This document shows, piece by piece, positions 1,390-8,777 of a stretch of DNA of 8,777 bases; position 1 is the stretch's first letter, and the number at the start of each line of letters is the position of its first letter. Position numbers and translations under genes: made by a program. Below the pieces are notes generated by a model. It saw only the letters and a list, made by a program, of their open reading frames with translations. It had not been told where the DNA came from and did not search any database. Where the stretch lies: IMG/VR virus record IMGVR_UViG_2711768073_000009; one strand, given 5' to 3'. This DNA is from a virus. Lineage: Duplodnaviria > Heunggongvirae > Uroviricota > Caudoviricetes.

Positions 1390-3522
1390 ATGAGTACCAC
1401 AACACGAAAATTTAAAACCGTTATCACCGATACGGGTGCAAAAAAATTAGCTCAGGCAGCCGCGCCAGATGGTAAGCCTGTCCGCCTGACTCATATGGCC
1501 GTGGGCGACGGTGGCGGCGCGTTGCCCACACCAGACAGTAAGCAGACCCGTCTGGTGCATGAGGTGTGGCGACACACTGTTAATCGCGTCATCCTGGACG
1601 CAACACATCAGAACCGCATTATTGCGGAGCTGGTTATTCCTCCAGAAACGGGCGGATTCTGGATCCGGGAAATTGGTGTTTTTGATGAGCACGGCGATTT
1701 AATCGCGGTGGGCAATACTGCCGAAAGTTACAAGCCAGCCGTTGCCGAAGGGTCCGGACGTGCACAAACATTTCGCACCATTCTGACCGTATCCAGCACT
1801 GCCACTGTGGCGCTTACCGTGGATAACACCATGGTGATGGCCACAGTGGATTACGTGGATAACAAACTGAAAGAGCATGAACAGTCACGATGTCACCCGG
1901 ATGCCTCGCTGACCGCAAAAGGCTTTGTTCAACTCAGTAGCGCCACTAACAGCGATTCTGAAACGCTGGCTGCAACGCCGAAAGCGGTTAAGGTCGCGTA
2001 TGATCTTGCTAACGGAAAATATACAGCGCAGGATGCCACAACAGCGCGAAAAGGCCTTGTCCAGCTTAGTAGTGCAACCAACAGTACATCTGAAACGCTG
2101 GCGGCAACATCAAATGCAGTAAAAGCTGCCTATGACAATGCTGAAAAACGTCTGCAGAAAGCTAAGAATGGTGAGGATATCTCTGATAAAGACACCTTTA
2201 CGAAAAATATCGGTGCCTGCCGTGCATATAGTGCAGAGCTGAATATTGGTGGAGATAGTGAAGCATGGACAACTGCGCAGTTGATTTTTTGGCTAGAGAG
2301 TCAGGGGGCATTTAACCATCCTTACTGGATGTGCAAAGGCTCATGGGCTTATGCAAATAATAAGGTCATTACAGATACAGGTTGCGGAAGTATTTGTCTT
2401 GCAGGTGCTGTTGTGGAAGTTATTGGCACCCGCGGCGCAATGACCATACGCATTACCACACCGAGTACATCCAGCGGTGAAGGCATCCCTAATGCTCAAT
2501 TTACTTATATTAATCATGGTGATGCTTATGCTCCTGGCTGGCGAAGGGACTATAACTCCAGGAATAAGCCAACAGCATCAGAGATCGGGGCGTTACCGTC
2601 AGATGGGACAGCAGTATCGTCAGTTAATCTGGCTTCAAAAGGTCGGCTGACCGCCCTGACAGATAATATGCAGGGGGCCACAGGTCTGGAGTTATACGAG
2701 GCGTATAACAACGGATATCCAACAACGTATGGAAATATCATTCACCTGAAAGGGATGACAGCCGTTGGCGAAGGCGAATTACTCATCGGCTGGAGTGGTA
2801 TAAGCGGTGCTCATGCTCCGGCATTTATTCGTTCACGACGGGATACGCCCGACGCAAACTGGTCGCCGTGGGCGCAGCTTTACACCTCGGCTCATCCTCC
2901 TGAAGAGTTTTATCCAGTCGGTGCACCGATTCCGTGGCCATCAGATACCGTTCCGTCTGGTTATGCCCTGATGCAGGGGCAGACTTTTGACAAATCTGCA
3001 TACCCGAAACTTGCAGTCGCTTATCCGTCAGGCGTTATTCCTGATATGCGTGGCTGGACGATTAAGGGCAAGCCCGGCAGTGGTCGTGCCGTATTGTCTC
3101 AGGAACAGGACGGCATTAAATCGCACACCCACAGCGCCAGCGCATCCAGTACGGATTTGGGGACGAAAACCACATCGTCGTTTGATTACGGTACTAAAAC
3201 GACCAGTTCATTTGATTACGGCACAAAAACTACGAATAGCGCTGGAAATCATTCACACAATATACCTGTTGGTCACACTGGCGCGGGGAATGGTGTATCA
3301 GCCGGTTATAACGCTGCGTTAGGTACTGGTACCACGTCGAGCGCAGGCGAGCATGCTCACAATGTATATATCGGTGCCCATAACCACACTATCGGCATTG
3401 GTGCTCATGCCCATTCTGTCATTATTGGTCCCCACGGACACACCATCACCGTTAACGCTACGGGTAACGAAGAAAACACCGTAAAAAACATCGCATTTAA
3501 CTATATTGTGAGGCTTGCATAA
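1390..3522 (+). CDS. H: Tail fibre protein (P2 gpH-like N-terminus, phage tail collar domain, His-rich T4 gp37/lambda Stf-like tip)
   Basis: 710-aa ORF starting 3 nt after the I stop. The N-terminal about 250 aa ([60 protein letters not shown], duplicated [16 protein letters not shown]) resembles P2 gpH. Residues around [29 protein letters not shown]...DMRGWTIKG fit the phage tail collar domain. The C-terminus carries HxH motifs (NHSHN, EHAHN, AHNHT, AHAHS, PHGHT) and ends [11 protein letters not shown], as in T4 gp37-type and Stf-type fibre tips. Confidence 0.9.
1912..2130 (+). repeat. Intragenic duplication in H: two copies of a 44-codon unit ([34 protein letters not shown] and [33 protein letters not shown]), 132 bp apart
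   Basis: Direct read of the sequence and translation. The nucleotide copies are diverged but clearly homologous (ctcagtagcgccactaacagcgattctgaaacgctggctgcaacg versus cttagtagtgcaaccaacagtacatctgaaacgctggcggcaaca). Confidence 0.75.
3158..3240 (+). repeat. 30-bp tandem repeat, about 2.7 copies, encoding [27 protein letters not shown] in the fibre tip
   Basis: Copies at 3161-3190, 3191-3220 and a partial copy at 3221-3240. The first two encode an identical peptide with synonymous nucleotide differences (acgaaaaccacatcgtcg versus actaaaacgaccagttca). Confidence 0.8.
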
Positions 3523-4100
3523 TGACATTCAGAATGAGTGAACACTCACGGACCATAAAAATTTATAATCTACTGACCGGAACCAATGAGTTTATTGGTG
3601 AAGGTGATGCATACATTCCACCTCATACAGGTCTGCCTGCAAACAGTACCGATATTGCCCCGCCAGATATTCCGGCTGGCTTCGTGGCCGTTTTCAACAG
3701 TGATGAGGCATCGTGGCATCTCGTTGAAGACCATCGGGGTAAAACGGTTTATGACGTGGCATCAGGGGACTCGTTATTTATTTCTGAACTCGGTCCATTA
3801 CCGGAAAATGTTACCTGGTTGTCGCCGTATGGAGAGTATCAGAAGTGGAACGGCACATCCTGGGTGAAAGATGCAGAAGCAGAAAAACTGTTTCGGATAA
3901 GGGAGGCGGAAGAAACAAAAAACAGCCTGATGCAGGTAGCCAGCGAGCATATTGCGCCACTTCAGGATGCCGTAGATTTGGATATTGCAACGGAGGAAGA
4001 GGCATCGTTACTGGCTGCATGGAAGACATACCGGGTATTGTTGAATCGTGTTAATACAGCGGTAGCAGCGGATGTTGAGTGGCCAGTCGCCCCACAATAA
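3522..4100 (+). CDS. tfa: Tail fibre assembly chaperone (Tfa; P2 gpG / Mu U / lambda Tfa family)
   Basis: 192-aa ORF whose ATG overlaps the H stop (TAATG at 3520-3524), with GAGG about 10 nt upstream. The N-terminus [62 protein letters not shown] is the classic enterobacterial Tfa N-domain, and the C-terminal [15 protein letters not shown]...EWP resembles the gpG C-terminus. Position immediately after the fibre gene is canonical. Confidence 0.88.
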
Positions 4101-4104
4101 AGAG

Positions 4105-4136
4105 AAAAAGCCATCGATTGAAATATAGATGGCTTT
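4105..4136 (-). terminator. Candidate rho-independent terminator between the convergent tfa and acetyltransferase genes
   Basis: Inverted repeat AAAGCCATC (4107-4115) and GATGGCTTT (4128-4136) with a 12-nt loop. Read on the minus strand, the stem is followed by TTTTTCTCT, directly after the acetyltransferase stop (TAG, complement of 4144-4146). On the plus strand the stem lies 7 nt after the tfa stop but has a weaker U tract. Confidence 0.5.
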
Positions 4137-4143
4137 ATGTACT

Positions 4144-4701
4144 CTATTTATACAATACAACACCGCTCTTTTTAGTTATATATGTGCAGTTCGATGGTAT
4201 ATCTTTATTTATAAAAGACATTGCACCTATTTTTACATTATCCCCAATTTTACGTGATAATCCAATGATGCAACAATTAGCTCCGATATCAACGTTACTA
4301 CCAATTTTTACTCTTGAACCAGGCATGTCACCATCTATCTGTCCAATGGTAGTATTCTGTCGTAACACCAGATTTTCACCAGCATCAACAGCAAAATGAA
4401 CAACAATTCCAGCATGATGGGGAATTGTTAACCCTTTTCCAATATTTGCGCCCAATCCAATTTCACAACCAAATTTGTTAATTATTTTACTGTTTAACTT
4501 TTTGGCTGCTTTCTTATGTAATTTATTACCATTAATATACATTTCGTTAGCCAACCGCCACCAGAAAAGGAAATTCCGGTTACGCTGTTTTTTCTCTCTT
4601 AAAAGCCTCCAGATATCCATACGTTTCCGCCGAATTACTTCATATTTCCAGAAGTTTTTTAAATTAGTAGAGTCCCCAAATAAAACAAAGTGAATTGCCA
4701 T
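4144..4701 (-). CDS. Hexapeptide-repeat acyltransferase (left-handed beta-helix, serine acetyltransferase CysE/WcaB-like); cargo gene
   Basis: ORF track 4144..4749 (201 aa from a GTG with no Shine-Dalgarno). I start the CDS at ATG 4699-4701 (MAIHF...); another in-frame ATG at 4618-4620 (MDIWRLL...) is possible. The C-terminal half has imperfect hexapeptide repeats and a CysE/WcaB-like pattern (GCEIGLGANIGKGLTIPHHAGIVVHFAVDAGENLVLRQNTTIGQ...IGSNVDIGANCCIIG...IGDNVKIGAMSFINKDIPSN). The region is very AT-rich: about 25-32% GC in hand-counted 60-nt samples, against about 55-65% in flanking tail genes. Confidence 0.72.
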   Translation of the reverse strand: MAIHFVLFGDSTNLKNFWKYEVIRRKRMDIWRLLREKKQRNRNFLFWWRLANEMYINGNKLHKKAAKKLNSKIINKFGCEIGLGANIGKGLTIPHHAGIVVHFAVDAGENLVLRQNTTIGQIDGDMPGSRVKIGSNVDIGANCCIIGLSRKIGDNVKIGAMSFINKDIPSNCTYITKKSGVVLYK

Positions 4702-4751
4702 TAAGTAAGACAGCACGATAATCTCCTTAATTATTATTTCAGACCACACAT

Positions 4752-4796
4752 ATTATAAGGTTAAGAGATTATAAAATCCTGTTGTTTGTTATTCAA
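4752..4796 (-). promoter_or_regulatory. Candidate sigma70 promoter for the acetyltransferase gene
   Basis: On the minus strand, TTGAAT (complement of 4791-4796), a 17-nt spacer, then TATAAT (complement of 4768-4773); a second TATAAT lies at the complement of 4752-4757. Located in the AT-rich gap between the gpU stop and the acetyltransferase ORF. Pattern match only. Confidence 0.3.
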
Positions 4797-4872
4797 AAAC
4801 AATTTTCTGAGAAGGACATACAACAGCAAGTCGCCAGTCACCTTCATCAGGAAATTGGCGACATACGTTAAA

Positions 4873-5367
4873 TCAGAGCAGCCCCTTAACTGAGCTGGTC
4901 GCGCTATTAAGGGATGATGTCACCTTATCTTTGAAGCCGGACAACATATCGCTGAACGATGAGGATTGCAGGCGCTCCCGCAAATCCTCATCACAGCGTT
5001 CAAGAGTCAGTGAAAATTCTATCTTTTTCGCCTTACCGTAGCGATCAAACTCGGAGCGGGTCGTATTCGTTTCGGTCAGGACATACATGCCGTAAATCTG
5101 CCCGACGCCATCAATCAGAGGCCAGGGCCGTCCTGTATACGCCTGCGTGGTCAGCAGAGACAGCGACACTTCGCCACCTGTAATTTCAGGATAAAGCACA
5201 CCAGAAAGAACGATGCGATCATCACCTGCACCGATATACTGCCAGCTTGCTGAACGGTTAACGCGTTCATTTTTCACATGCCGCCAGCTTTTGTTTTGCT
5301 GTAACTGCTGATGCGGCAGCGTGCGCAGCTCAAAAACAAACATGCCATAGATCATCATCATGGCCAT
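4873..5367 (-). CDS. U: Tail protein U (P2 gpU family)
   Basis: 164-aa ORF with GAGGAG just upstream of the ATG on the minus strand, starting immediately after the tape measure stop. Motifs MFVFELRTLPHQ, GAGDDRIVLSGVLYPEITGG, GRPWPLIDGVGQIYGMYVL and KKIEFSLTLERCDE match recalled gpU. Sits directly downstream of the tape measure gene as in P2. Confidence 0.82.
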   Translation of the reverse strand: MAMMMIYGMFVFELRTLPHQQLQQNKSWRHVKNERVNRSASWQYIGAGDDRIVLSGVLYPEITGGEVSLSLLTTQAYTGRPWPLIDGVGQIYGMYVLTETNTTRSEFDRYGKAKKIEFSLTLERCDEDLRERLQSSSFSDMLSGFKDKVTSSLNSATSSVKGLL

Positions 5368-5373
5368 GACTCC

Positions 5374-8300
5374 TCAATCTTTATCGTAAAAACTGCCACG
5401 CCCGGCACGGGCGCGCCGTTCCATTTCTGCCCTGACCATTTCACCGACCAGTTTCGCCAGTTCGCGGGGATTCTGCGTAACAACGTTATGCAGATGAACA
5501 TGAATTTCACCGCCAAATCTGGAGACAGCAGGCTCCCGATTACGGGAAGCTGCAGGAACTGATGCCACTGGCGATCGTATGGCCTCCGCCACCGGGCGGG
5601 AGCTGGCCGCAACAACAGGGACCAGCGCCGGAGGCAGCGGAGCCGGGACTACGGGTGTGATATTAATTGCGGGGGCAGGCTTACTGACCTGCGCAATCTT
5701 CCGCTCCTGCCACTCCCCACGAACAGCAAGTGCGCGGGGCAGGTTCTTAAAGACAATATCGCCAGGGCCAATGCGTTTTTTCGTCTCATCAACCAGCTTA
5801 CCTGTGTTATCAGCAATTTTGCTGAGTCTGCGTAGCGTCCCGGTATTGCTGTCTGTGAGCGGTTTGTTGTCTTTGGGTTTATCACCTCCGGTGCCATTGC
5901 CATTTTCCACAGGCTTCGGCGGATTGATTTTCGCCAGGTCCCCCTGAAGTAAGGCAACCTTATCCTGAAGAATGGCCGCACGCTGTGCGTCTTCGATTTT
6001 CTTGCGCGCCCTTTCCGCTTCATCCGGAAGGACGCCAAGTTTTTCAAGTATCCACGCCAGCGTATCCAGTAGCATTTTTGCAGGTGTCAGAACAAGTTGT
6101 AACGCACCGCCAAGAACGTTACCGAATATCTCGCCAGCACTGGTACATTTATCCAGCGTTTCCTTGCTGGACTCCATCGGTGACAGCAGCGATTTAAACC
6201 AGTTAAACACCTGGCTGATCCCGCTTCCGATTGCGTCAAAAACAGGGCCAAACCGTTCAAAGGTTTCACGCAACGGGTTCAGCCTTTCCATAATCCCGCT
6301 GAACACCCCGGCAAAAAATGCCCTGATGGGATCCCAGTATTTCCAGATAAGGACGGCAGCTCCGGCAAGCGCAGCCACGATAAGACCAACCGGACTGAAC
6401 AGCGCCCCGATAGCGCCTCCCAGTAAAGAAACGGAACCCGTCACCATTCCCCATAGTGCTGGCAGGACCCTGACAGCATTCATTGATCCGGTCAGGAGAG
6501 AAAAACCAAGACGCAGTTTTGCCAGCGGACCAGCAAGCACACCAATAGCCAGCGACAACGAGCCAACCGTTGCAGTCATTGCCAGCAACGCACCGCCTGC
6601 TATCAGTAGCTGGCGCGTCAGTGCCGGATGGGCCTGCGCCAGCGCCGTCACCCTTGATACCACCCGCGCGAGCCACTGCGTGACAGAACGCAGCGGACCG
6701 TCAATCAGATCTGCAATGCGGATGCGCAACCCTTCCCATGCACTGCCGAGTGATTTCAGATCGCCGTCAAGGTTGTTGGCCATAACCTTTGCTGTGCGTT
6801 CAGCCTCACCGCGCGCGCCTTCAAGTTCTTTTCTCAGTTTGGGTAAGGAACCGTCACCCGCTGCATCAACGAGCGCCATAAACGATGTGAAAGCCTCTTC
6901 TCCGGCAATGTCCTTAAAGAACGATACCCGGTCAACTTCCCCGTATTTGCGGGTGGCTTTATAAAGGTCGGCCAGCACATCCTCCATCGGGCGCATTTTA
7001 CCCCCGGCATCCGAGACGGACACGCCCAGCTCTTTCAGAGCTTCTGCCGCCGCCTTTGGCGGTGATGCCAGACGAGCCAGGCTGGCACGCATTGCCGTCC
7101 CGGCATCACTCCCCCTGATACCCATATTCGCCAGCACGCCCGCCATCGCTGCGGCCTGCTCCAGCGATATTCCCAGCTTGCCCGCCACCGGACCTGCATA
7201 TTTCATGGTTTCGCCCAGTGCGCGAAGGTCAGTGTTGACACGCCCAGCTCTTTCAGAGCTTCTGCCGCCGCCTTTGGCGGTGATGCCAGACGAGCCAGGC
7301 TGGCACGCATTGCCGTCCCGGCATCACTCCCTCTGATGCCCATATTCGCCAGCACACCAGCCATCGCTGCGGCCTGCTCCAGCGATATTCCCAGCTTACC
7401 CGCCACCGGACCTGCATATTTCATGGTTTCGCCCAGTGCGCGAAGGTCAGTGTTGGTACGGGTAAACGCTGCGGTGAGTGTGTCACCGACCCGGTCCATC
7501 TGGTCAGCAGAAAGGCCGAACTGCGTCAGGATATTTGAGCCAATATCTGCCGTCTCGCCGAGATCCATACCGCCAGCCGTTGCCATGCTCAGCACGCCGG
7601 GAAGCGCAGCCTGAATGGCCTGCGGAGTGAAGCCAGCCATTGCAAGAAATGCCTGTCCACTGGCGGCATCGCCTGCGGTGAACTGCGTTTCAGAGCCAAG
7701 TTTTAACGCCTGCTCACGCAGCGCCTTAAACTGCGGGCTGTTCTGGTCGATTCGCGTCAGTGCCTGAACGCGGGACATCTCTTTGCCGAACCCGATCGCA
7801 GGCTGCAAAAAACGCCCGGCAGCATAGCCGCCCGCCGCTGCCGCACCAATTGCCAGCGCACCACCTGTTTTCAGTTTTCCCGCTGTTTCCTGCGCGCGCG
7901 AATACCGCTCACGCGCCTGCGTTACACGCGCAAGCGCCTGCCGTTCGCGTTCAAGCTGGTTGTTGTACTGTTCGGTGCGTCTGATGGCCTGCTGGATGGT
8001 GTTATCGCTGCCTGTCAGGGAAATGCCGTGGCGTTTCAGCTCTCCGCCAAGTTCCCGCATTTTCTGAATTTCCCGTGTGCGCGATTCATTCAGGCGTTCA
8101 AGCCGGGTGCTTAACTGCTGCATCAGCTTTTGTTGTTTTTCGCTGAGCACTGTACCCGTGCGTTGTAACTGATTAAGGGCGTTAAGCTGGCGTCGTGCTT
8201 TCAATATGCCAGCATCCGCTTTACTGACAGCGTCACAGGCGCGCTCAAATGAACGCGCCTGACGCTCGAGATTTTTGATCGCCCCCTGAGTTCGCTGGAT

Positions 8301-8399
8301 GGAGTCACCAAACTGCCCCATCAGGCGGCGGGCGTTTTCGGCAGGCCGGGTCAGCCTGTCAACGGCGCTGAAAGCGACCCGGATATCAAGAGTCTTCAT
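5374..8399 (-). pseudogene. T: Tail tape measure protein (P2 gpT / TP901-type core), frameshifted by a 218-bp tandem duplication
   Basis: Two adjacent ORFs, 7203..8435 (N-terminal part) and 5374..7206 (C-terminal part). The 63-aa block MKYAGPVAGKLGISLEQAAAMAGVLANMGIRGSDAGTAMRASLARLASPPKAAAEALKELGVS ends the first and begins the second. Deleting one 218-bp copy restores a single frame of about 935 codons. Likely start is ATG at 8397-8399 (MKTLDIR...), with AGGA 9 nt upstream, rather than the GTG at 8435. Motifs KYAGPVAGKLGIS, AGVLANMGIRGSD and a Gly/Ala-rich hydrophobic middle are typical of tape measure proteins. Confidence 0.8.
7019..7454. repeat. Tandem direct duplication, 2 x 218 bp, inside the tape measure gene
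   Basis: Copy 1 is 7019-7236 and copy 2 is 7237-7454, aligned by hand. There are 5 mismatches in 218 bp (ccccctgata/ccctctgatg, cacgcccgcc/cacaccagcc, cttgccc/cttaccc), all synonymous in the gene's frame. 218 is not a multiple of 3, so the frame shifts at the junction. Confidence 0.9.
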
Positions 8400-8777
8400 T
8401 ATCTGCATTCCTGCTGCGAAGTGCCGCCCGCTCACGCCAGCTAACCACTTCGCCGGGCGTCATCATGAAGATTTCGGCGGGCGACCAGTTAAAAATAACG
8501 GCAATATCTGCCACAAAGTCTTCTATGTGCTCAAAGCACACAACCGTGATCAGGCTTCCGTCGCCTGTTCGTTCTTCCCGCCAGAGTCCGCACCGCTCAA
8601 AAAATTTACGGCAACCACACATAACTGAATAAAGTCACGGGATGCCATTTTTTTGATCGTCACTTCATCCAGTCGCGGTGATGTCACGCGTGACAGCAGC
8701 GTAAACATGGATTCCGCTTTCAGATTCAGCACATCAGACAGCGACAAATCTCGCAGAGATCCAGCCTGCTCAATAGC
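8386..8777 (-). CDS. Tail assembly chaperone E+E' fusion made by programmed -1 ribosomal frameshift (P2 gpE+E' / lambda G-GT analogue), partial
   Basis: The -1 frame ORF 8386..8622 has no credible start of its own and overlaps the 3' part of E. It ends (TGA, complement of 8386-8388) 14 nt inside the tape measure start. The two frames meet at T TTT TTG. Confidence 0.6.
8550..8777 (-). CDS. E: Tail assembly chaperone E (P2 gpE-like), 5' end probably beyond window end
   Basis: Small ORF directly upstream of the tape measure gene; stop TGA at the complement of 8550-8552. The frame is open to the window edge (ORF track begins at a TTG at 8747), and a gpE-sized protein of about 90 aa would start past nt 8777. 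Contains the slippery heptamer. Assignment rests on position and the frameshift architecture rather than remembered sequence. Confidence 0.6.
   Translation of the reverse strand, partial: AIEQAGSLRDLSLSDVLNLKAESMFTLLSRVTSPRLDEVTIKKMASRDFIQLCVVAVNFLSGADSGGKNEQATEA
8598..8604 (-). other. Slippery heptamer T TTT TTG for the E to E' -1 frameshift
   Basis: Minus strand reads cgtAAATTTTTTGagc. In the E frame the codons are AAT TTT TTG (X XXY YYZ with the heptamer in phase); in the -1 frame AAA TTT TTT GAG continues as KFFERCGLW in the E' ORF. P2 E/E' is reported to use the same TTTTTTG heptamer. Confidence 0.6.

Follow-up and report, generated by a model that had tools for sequence, protein, structure and literature searches.

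The 8,777-nucleotide stretch of viral DNA IMGVR_UViG_2711768073_000009 (Caudoviricetes; the whole of it is called the window below) holds, in an AT-rich island at 4101-4872, a moron that very probably encodes an active acetyltransferase, judging by its sequence and a structural model. The gene lies tail to tail with tfa, the tail-fibre assembly gene of a P2-like prophage of Escherichia coli, and has distant homologues inside chromosomal clusters for the lipopolysaccharide (LPS) core. We read it as a moron for an O-acetyltransferase of envelope glycans, with the LPS core as the best candidate acceptor and lysogenic conversion as the outcome; this reading as a whole we hold to be evenly poised. 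Its parts differ in strength: a glycan acceptor is mildly favoured, the LPS core in particular is a tentative choice, and masking of a phage receptor is doubtful.

An acetyltransferase of the serine acetyltransferase fold

The initial annotation had described the product as a hexapeptide acyltransferase resembling serine acetyltransferase (SAT) and WcaB. The SAT fold, a left-handed beta-helix (LbH), is borne out; membership of the WcaB, CysE or EpsC families is not. NCBIfam models for EpsC, CysE and WcaB match the protein at 54-75 bits, against cut-offs of 150-210. The CysE equivalogs are not reached (TIGR01172, 61.5 vs 210.65; PRK11132, 36.7 vs 397), nor are the WcaB equivalogs (TIGR04016 and PRK10191, about 54 bits vs about 195), whose expected wca cluster is replaced here by a prophage, nor is the model NF041874 for EpsC-type exopolysaccharide (EPS) acetyltransferases (75 vs 150). 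All 40 family members lie far under every NCBIfam equivalog cut-off, the best cysE E-value being 1e-23. Most homologues carry PF00132, and the protein has no match to Acyl_transf_3 (PF01757). Over its full length it matches PHROG 2154, a family of 'unknown function' (E 1.7e-87, residues 24-201 against positions 3-181 of the 185 in the profile).

We built an AlphaFold (AF2) model on the 40-sequence alignment, with a pLDDT of 84.9 and a pTM of 0.81. In this model five N-terminal helices (residues 2-82) are followed by a left-handed beta-helix of short strands. A Foldseek search of the PDB gave 99 matches, and the 50 listed are all CysE serine acetyltransferases (probability 1.0, TM score 0.6-0.7, E down to 1e-5). 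As modelled, the protein belongs to the LbH (hexapeptide) acyltransferase superfamily, and it is probably soluble and trimeric.

The HMMER alignment to CysE structures places H100 on the catalytic His158 and E85 on its partner Asp143, in the numbering of the E. coli CysE sequence. Across the 40 homologues the first column of this dyad is always D or E, and the histidine is at least 90% conserved. The serine-binding residues have fared differently. In CysE structures Asp157 binds the amino group of serine and the Arg192/His193 segment binds its carboxylate; here Pro99 aligns to Asp157, in a column that varies through the family (P/L/F/G/A/S), and the Arg192/His193 segment falls in the most variable loop of the family. 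CysE also has a helical N-domain of full length and, at its C-terminus, a tail that binds CysK and ends in Ile. The N-domain of the window protein is only 82 residues long, and its chain ends in ...GVVLYK, without the terminal Ile. Because the cut-offs fail, the serine-binding residues are gone, the N-domain is truncated and the C-terminal tail is absent, the protein is best taken, on sequence and model, as a SAT-fold acetyltransferase that is not a serine acetyltransferase, and its database name as an over-annotation.

A self-contained gene in an AT-rich island

The AT-rich stretch reported earlier is real: 34.1% GC against 54.3% for the remaining window. The values first given for it, 25-32% against 55-65%, were exaggerated at both ends. 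The lowest GC content of any other 772-bp segment is 46.5% (mean 54.6, standard deviation 4.2), which leaves the island about five standard deviations low. GC in the neighbouring genes is 48% (tfa), 50.5% (gpU) and 57-60% (T and J), and GC at third codon positions (GC3) is 0.30 in the acetyltransferase gene against 0.44-0.67 in its neighbours. Both measures set the island apart as compositionally foreign. As had been proposed, it holds a single convincing gene, on the minus strand and convergent with tfa. The features of the locus are as follows.

4101-4872, no strand: AT-rich island, exactly filling the space between the stop codons of tfa and gpU; 34.1% GC
4144-4716, minus strand: acetyltransferase gene of the SAT-fold left-handed beta-helix type, 190 amino acids, GTG start, WP_000954196.1, PHROG 2154
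4723-4728, minus strand: Shine-Dalgarno site AAGGAG, 6 nt before GTG 4716; conserved in alleles with 70%-identical proteins
4768-4796, minus strand: sigma-70-like promoter, -35 TTGAAT at 4796-4791, 17-nt spacer, -10 TATAAT at 4773-4768; 10/12 matches
4095-4136, minus strand: intrinsic-terminator-like hairpin, arms 4107-4118 and 4125-4136, U-rich tail running into the tfa stop
4830-4862, minus strand: hairpin just after the gpU stop, folding energy (dG) -21.3, z -4.9, then UUGCUGUUGU
3522-4100, plus strand: tfa, tail-fibre assembly gene (Caudo_TAP), the convergent partner that travels with the acetyltransferase gene
4873-5367, minus strand: gpU tail protein, right boundary of the island

The long open reading frame (ORF) at 4144-4749 offers several possible starts. 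The three put forward originally, GTG 4749, ATG 4701 and ATG 4620, are all wrong. We place the start at GTG 4716, because the N-termini of 40 homologues, which begin MLSYLM..., align to Val12 of the long frame and AAGGAG lies 6 nt upstream. The RefSeq product for the gene is the same 190-residue protein. GTG 4749 was rejected since no Shine-Dalgarno site precedes it and the predicted start of the transcript is about 12 nt away; ATG 4701 and ATG 4620 would each remove conserved N-terminal residues.

The candidate promoter and terminator that the initial annotation had assigned to the gene were recovered in silico, together with the Shine-Dalgarno site and hairpins on both flanks. Both promoter hexamers are identical in the allele of E. 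coli O157 and in two related loci whose proteins are 70% identical (L004 and L162); a second TATAAT stands at 4757-4752 on the minus strand. Compared with L004 and L162, the roughly 110 nt upstream of the gene (4714-4830: promoter, leader and Shine-Dalgarno site) are about 95% conserved. This reflects either a stronger constraint than that on the enzyme or a recombination breakpoint common to different cassettes.

The hairpin at 4136-4107 folds on the minus strand with a dG of -14.4 (z -2.9) and is followed by UUCUCUUUAUU; on the plus strand its dG is -14.3 (z -3.7). It is predicted in silico to end the acetyltransferase gene and the convergent tfa alike. On the other side, the hairpin at 4830-4862 is probably the terminator of the FI-FII-E-T-U operon, and late tail transcription should therefore stop before it reaches the acetyltransferase gene. 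The dyad TGT-N12-ACA, the Ogr-type consensus of P2 late promoters, occurs nowhere in the window. Altogether, the predicted anatomy is that of a textbook moron, self-contained and insulated from both neighbouring operons. We found no transcriptome or proteome entry for the gene in the literature, the O157 proteome supplement included.

Two further candidates inside the island were discarded. For an RNA gene there were only sub-threshold chance matches. The sequence TTATTCAAAAACAATTTTCTGAGAA at 4789-4813 looked hix-like and was considered as a remnant of a Gin/Cin crossover; searches for such sites (the AAACCNNGGTTT pattern with at most 2 mismatches and the P88 site with at most 3) found none anywhere in the window, which has neither an invertase nor a gix/cix crossover site and hence no inversion system.

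Inheritance together with tfa

In a set of 80 viral contigs a Tfa gene is usually the immediate downstream, convergent neighbour of the acetyltransferase gene, mostly at a distance of 43-54 nt. The pairing holds in 40/42 contigs at more than 95% identity of the acetyltransferase, in 15/16 at 75-95%, in 7/10 at 55-75% and in 3/8 at 45-55%. The identities of the two proteins drop roughly together, down to 47% and 38%, respectively, in the bee-gut genus Gilliamella. In the P1-like phage JL22 the end of the fibre gene H, tfa and the acetyltransferase gene are 93% identical in nucleotides to those of the window; there the gene sits inside the cin-invertible C segment, between two convergent tfa genes, and its authors give its role as unknown (PMC9603915). 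When the two flanks were joined into one query, wherever this tfa allele and this gpU turned up together the island lay in between; there was no empty site, and a precise insertion scar could not be defined. From these comparisons the acetyltransferase gene appears to be inherited as a unit with tfa and to move between P2-like prophages and P1-like plasmids.

The slot had been likened to the Z/fun hotspot of P2, just after the tail-fibre assembly gene. Its position agrees, and its other neighbour is gpU and not FI. The Z/fun region is one of three sites where foreign genes accumulate in P2 (PMC3091744). We compared the locus across related prophages, as the initial annotation had proposed, and found the slot differently filled: in P88, UTI89 and T28R an alternative fibre cassette with an invertase lies between tfa and gpU.

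Other fillings were seen as well. Related P2-like prophages (L004-L006, 5617-6605) have a 70%-identical acetyltransferase together with a tfa fragment of 87 residues and, on the opposite strand, a class I methyltransferase. It looks as if recombination within tfa had stacked one cassette of tfa 3' end and cargo upon another. In E. coli 2014C-3655 (L185, 3769-4314) the slot holds a 38%-identical LbH 'transferase' adjoining a 77%-identical Tfa. Ser-Tyr replaces the Pro-His of the family in that protein, which thus loses the catalytic His, and the RQNTT and GAMSF motifs are missing from it as well; possibly this is a paralogue that has lost its activity or taken on another role.

Distribution and selection

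Of 5426 complete E. coli genomes, 510-530 (about 10%) contain the island, and 495 have it with both flanks, the 1372-bp span being identical in every row sampled. It is also found at 66 plasmid places, mostly on P1-like replicons of 90-100 kb. The ORF is intact in 510 genomes, heavily decayed prophages included. The O157 allele differs from the window by 11 synonymous and 3 non-synonymous changes, with a ratio of non-synonymous to synonymous rates (dN/dS) of 0.07; for the allele of JL22 the ratio is 0.19. The gene is therefore under purifying selection.

The prophage of O157:H7 is a case in point for decay around the gene. It has lost head and baseplate genes to insertion sequence (IS) elements, T is frameshifted and D truncated, and the acetyltransferase gene is intact. 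In E. coli O157 AR-0428 (L022, 7408-16907) what is left of it between copies of IS3 and IS30 is a damaged tail block, tfa and the acetyltransferase gene, along with genes for replication and partition; those for the head, lysis and baseplate are lost.

Chromosomal homologues in LPS-core clusters

The idea that the enzyme modifies a surface sugar, raised in the initial annotation, gains support from the chromosome. Full-length homologues with 41-45% identity and the same conserved motifs lie inside LPS-core clusters in four proteobacterial lineages.

Halopseudomonas and Pseudomonas abyssi (six loci): hldE-msbA-LPS kinase-SAT, beside pseI/pseH/pseG
Ca. Pelagadaptatus: waaL-msbA-hldE-SAT-AT3/SGNH acyltransferase; the SAT start overlaps the hldE stop, with a GT9 heptosyltransferase and an LPS kinase nearby
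Dechloromonas metagenome-assembled genome: LPS kinases-SAT
Oceanospirillales Hp36: Kdo-family kinase-hexapep-SAT

This is evidence from gene neighbourhood in moderately distant sequences, and it suggests that the ancestral acceptor was the LPS core. Were the acceptor a conserved one, the inner core for instance, it would be understandable that a gene without partners functions in hosts of many O-serotypes.

The enteric homologues elsewhere are solo cargo, at prophage ends by hok or int, on EAF-type plasmids of enteropathogenic E. coli (EPEC) after the bfp operon, and by an integrase in Salmonella. One of them, 57% identical, sits at the edge of another P2/HP1-like prophage, beside hok/gef and the chromosomal copA (L007-L010, 5001-5573), and is very common, with 594 collection blocks in the index. 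Another, 50% identical, follows the bundle-forming-pilus genes (prepilin peptidase, SLT) of EAF-type virulence plasmids in EPEC, amid IS66, IS remnants and an espF fragment (L011-L014, 5001-5594).

A proposed route to lysogenic conversion

In the route that we propose, the repressed prophage would transcribe the acetyltransferase gene from its own promoter, and the soluble enzyme would use acetyl-CoA and the Glu85/His100 dyad for O-acetylation. It would act at the cytoplasmic face of the membrane, on a sugar in the precursor of an envelope glycan, most likely the LPS core. The modified glycan would then be exported and the surface of the lysogen would become O-acetylated, a form of lysogenic conversion. 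Of this route we infer that the lysogen expresses the gene, that the enzyme forms a trimer and uses acetyl-CoA, and what the acceptor and the phenotype are.

It is possible that the surface change also masks the receptor for phages with the linked fibre module and lowers superinfection. P2, P1 and Mu adsorb to the LPS core, and T4-type fibre tips use OmpC with LPS. Since P2, P1 and Mu bind there, a glycan change could cut superinfection by phages that carry the linked fibre. The boldest version would have an LPS-core acetyltransferase mask the receptor of the neighbouring fibre and stay tail to tail with tfa so that a single cassette carries both a host range and the superinfection exclusion to match. 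Swaps of this cassette would run among P2-like prophages, P1-like plasmids (through the invertible segment) and phages of other Gammaproteobacteria. We consider this version unlikely.

Several points weigh against the glycan reading or its extensions. The enteric copies are never in a polysaccharide cluster and always solo, and among 78 species-level genomic loci the neighbours are mostly uninformative, as in Rahnella and Orbus. The LPS-cluster homologues are only 41-45% identical and come from distant taxa, and acceptor specificity can change so far out. The linkage to tfa could merely reflect a safe insertion site at an operon end. AT-rich islands in E. coli are often silenced by H-NS, so the gene may be silent in the lysogen. 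The fibre tip and tfa of the window resemble lambda stf/tfa, and since lambda Stf uses OmpC and not just LPS for binding, the link to receptor masking is weakened. The Pfam Hexapep score of the protein is below the gathering threshold (23.6 vs 27). Finally, published accounts give the role of the gene as unknown or just 'fitness' (PMC9603915, PMC6456863).

In the searchable literature we found no description of the tfa coupling or of the LPS-core context of the chromosomal relatives. The cargo site after the fibre chaperone gene is known, as are surface-converting prophage acetyltransferases (Oac, GtrC, NeuO); this family is uncharacterised and mislabelled. About one in ten complete E. coli genomes carries the gene, with the major serogroups of enterohaemorrhagic E. 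coli (EHEC) and many P1-like plasmids among the carriers, and the gene goes under the misleading label 'serine O-acetyltransferase'. If the LPS-core proposal is true, about 10% of E. coli, including O157:H7, O26, O103 and O111 EHEC, have an unrecognised LPS modification, and the decayed O157:H7 remnant would have a reason to keep this one gene intact. Acetylation of an envelope glycan could alter phage susceptibility, phage typing, serology and innate immune recognition of these pathogens. Its recurring pairing with tfa offers a case in which the coupling of cargo to a host-range module can be tested. If the substrate of the enzyme is mundane, this is one more prophage moron.

Alternative functions

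The enzyme might instead acetylate a small molecule, such as a free sugar, a toxic analogue (as LacA and Maa do), a xenobiotic or an antibiotic, with detoxification as the benefit. We think this quite unlikely. There are weak matches to maltose and galactoside O-acetyltransferases, some copies are plasmid-borne, and in all enteric contexts the gene is solo, without partner glycosyltransferases. The Maa and LacA matches are, however, much weaker than those to the SAT/WcaB branch, models of the CatB/Vat type are unmatched, distant homologues sit in LPS-core operons, and detoxification would not obviously account for the persistent pairing with a tail-fibre gene.

Very unlikely is an intracellular anti-phage or toxin-type effector in the manner of Fun and Z, with a macromolecule of the phage or host, or else a signalling nucleotide, as its target for acetylation. 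The slot matches the position of P2 Z/fun, an exclusion locus (PMC3091744, PMC8594841), and the initial annotation had called this site a hotspot for accessory and anti-phage cargo; the gene also travels on prophages and plasmids as cargo, and a decayed prophage has kept it. Anti-phage cargo at this slot was not supported. In the type phage P88 the slot is occupied by an invertible fibre cassette and its invertase, and in this phage lineage it is normally filled by fibre-inversion genes, not defence genes. The PADLOC-DB defence-protein models give 0 families at E<=0.1, and the gene stands alone, without a sensor or partner. SAT-branch LbH enzymes act on small hydroxyl acceptors. The papers searched on P2/P4 hotspots do not name such an enzyme among the systems found there; their focus is on other hotspots, and we found no mention of Z/fun in them. 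A screen of the E. coli pangenome for defence likewise makes no mention of such an enzyme. With PADLOC empty and the hotspot and pangenome literature silent on it, a known defence system was rejected.

A genuine serine O-acetyltransferase would be an auxiliary metabolic gene through which the lysogen makes more O-acetylserine and cysteine or signals more strongly through CysB. CysE accounts for all of the best matches in sequence and structure, the dyad is conserved and PGAP names the product serine O-acetyltransferase; the failed TIGR01172 and PRK11132 cut-offs, the change of Asp157 to Pro, the unconserved Arg192/His193 segment, the short N-domain and the ...VLYK end make this highly improbable. 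We put at the same low level a role in virion assembly, with the phage's own tail fibre or Tfa as the target. The near-constant tail-to-tail pairing with tfa and the co-divergence of both proteins speak for it. Against it, the gene is on the opposite strand, behind the late operon terminator, with a sigma-70-type promoter and no Ogr-type dyad; many homologues have no phage nearby, and close relatives such as P88 and UTI89 build their fibres in its absence. That the gene is decaying or silent and hitch-hikes without a present function, as H-NS silencing of AT-rich DNA and the defective prophage of the window might suggest, is hardly credible given the dN/dS of 0.07-0.19, the ORF intact in 510 genomes and the conserved catalytic residues and promoter.

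Prophage setting of the window

The window comes from a P2-like prophage of E. coli of the P88/Xuanwuvirus type. Over 3400-5500 it shows 100% identity with the chromosome of E. coli O103 RM8385 and with several further strains, O111 among them. At the matching E. coli locus the RefSeq annotation shows a P2-type prophage adjoining tRNA-Leu/Cys/Gly and pgsA. The plus strand of the window encodes J, I, H (tail fibre) and tfa (Caudo_TAP, E 1e-39), and the minus strand the acetyltransferase, gpU (E 5e-39), the tape-measure gene T and the E genes. The tail block FI-FII-E-E'-T-U (window 4873-8622; locus L001, 21474-28307) is inverted relative to P2, with gpD after it on the opposite strand, which is the P88/Xuanwuvirus arrangement. 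Owing to this inversion the cargo slot is bounded by two convergent operon ends, those of tfa and gpU. Homology to P88-type phages without the island starts at 4867.

The C-terminus of H (about 3100-3522) contains tandem repeats of 11 residues and five HxH motifs (GNHSHN, GEHAHN, GAHNHT, GAHAHS and GPHGHT). The last 120 nt of H together with tfa (3400-4087) are 89% identical in nucleotides to lambda stf/tfa, so the fibre is a mosaic. Wholly inside tfa, at 3865-4063 on the plus strand, is a full-length match to Rfam RF02111 'IS009' (192 bits vs a gathering score of 117). This family probably models the conserved tfa coding sequence of cryptic prophages, not a separate RNA gene.

In T (5374-8399, minus strand) there is a 218-bp tandem duplication, absent from RM8385, with copies at 7019-7236 and 7237-7454 that are 97.7% alike. 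It shifts the frame and splits the tape-measure gene into ORFs at 7203-8435 and 5374-7206; with T frameshifted, the prophage of the window is defective. Identity to RM8385 is 99.86% to the left of 7237 and 98.6% to the right. The duplication and the drop in identity suggest either an unequal crossover between two prophage alleles or an assembly chimera.

Comparison with known systems

The window protein shares with CysE (PDB 6WYE, 4N69, 1T3D) the succession of an N-terminal helical domain and a left-handed beta-helix, and the position of the Asp/Glu-His dyad. It differs in the length of the N-domain (about 140 residues in CysE vs 82), in not keeping the serine-binding Asp157 and Arg192/His193, in having no C-terminal CysK-binding tail, in its score (61 bits vs a 210-bit cut-off) and in the absence of any cys-regulon context. 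Enzymes of the WcaB and EpsC type are similarly short SAT-like LbH proteins of comparable size, and their NCBIfam models are the best-scoring ones after or around CysE; they act on sugars of lipid-linked glycan precursors. The window protein scores only 54-75 against their cut-offs of 150-196, and its gene is solo on mobile elements, never in a colanic-acid or EPS cluster.

Among prophage-borne converters, NeuO of CUS-3 is a soluble LbH acetyltransferase as well. It O-acetylates the polysialic acid of E. coli K1 as lysogenic-conversion cargo, is phase-variable via heptanucleotide repeats, and has a strain-specific acceptor, the K1 capsule. It belongs to a different LbH subfamily and has no match in the PDB sequence search at E<=0.01; no such repeats were seen at the window gene by eye, without a tandem-repeat scan. 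Oac of Sf6 and GtrC resemble our proposal in its outcome, a surface glycan O-acetylated through a prophage. These are integral-membrane AT3 proteins (PF01757) that work on the periplasmic side and adjoin int/att, unlike the soluble LbH protein beside tfa.

P2 Z/fun and the invertible fibre cassettes of P88, Mu and P1 share the slot directly after the tail-fibre assembly gene. The window gene is not homologous to Fun or Z, and the window has none of the invertases or gix/cix sites of the cassettes. A functional parallel may lie in the receptor-masking genes linked to receptor-binding genes, llp beside pb5 in T5 and cor beside the tail genes of phi80 and N15. In those phages too a surface-modifying gene, expressed in lysogeny or early, stands next to the gene that sets host range, and the two are exchanged together. 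Llp and Cor, both small lipoproteins, act by blocking FhuA directly, whereas the mechanism proposed for the window gene would be enzymatic; if the masking cassette is real, it would be the enzymatic counterpart of the T5 llp/pb5 pairing.

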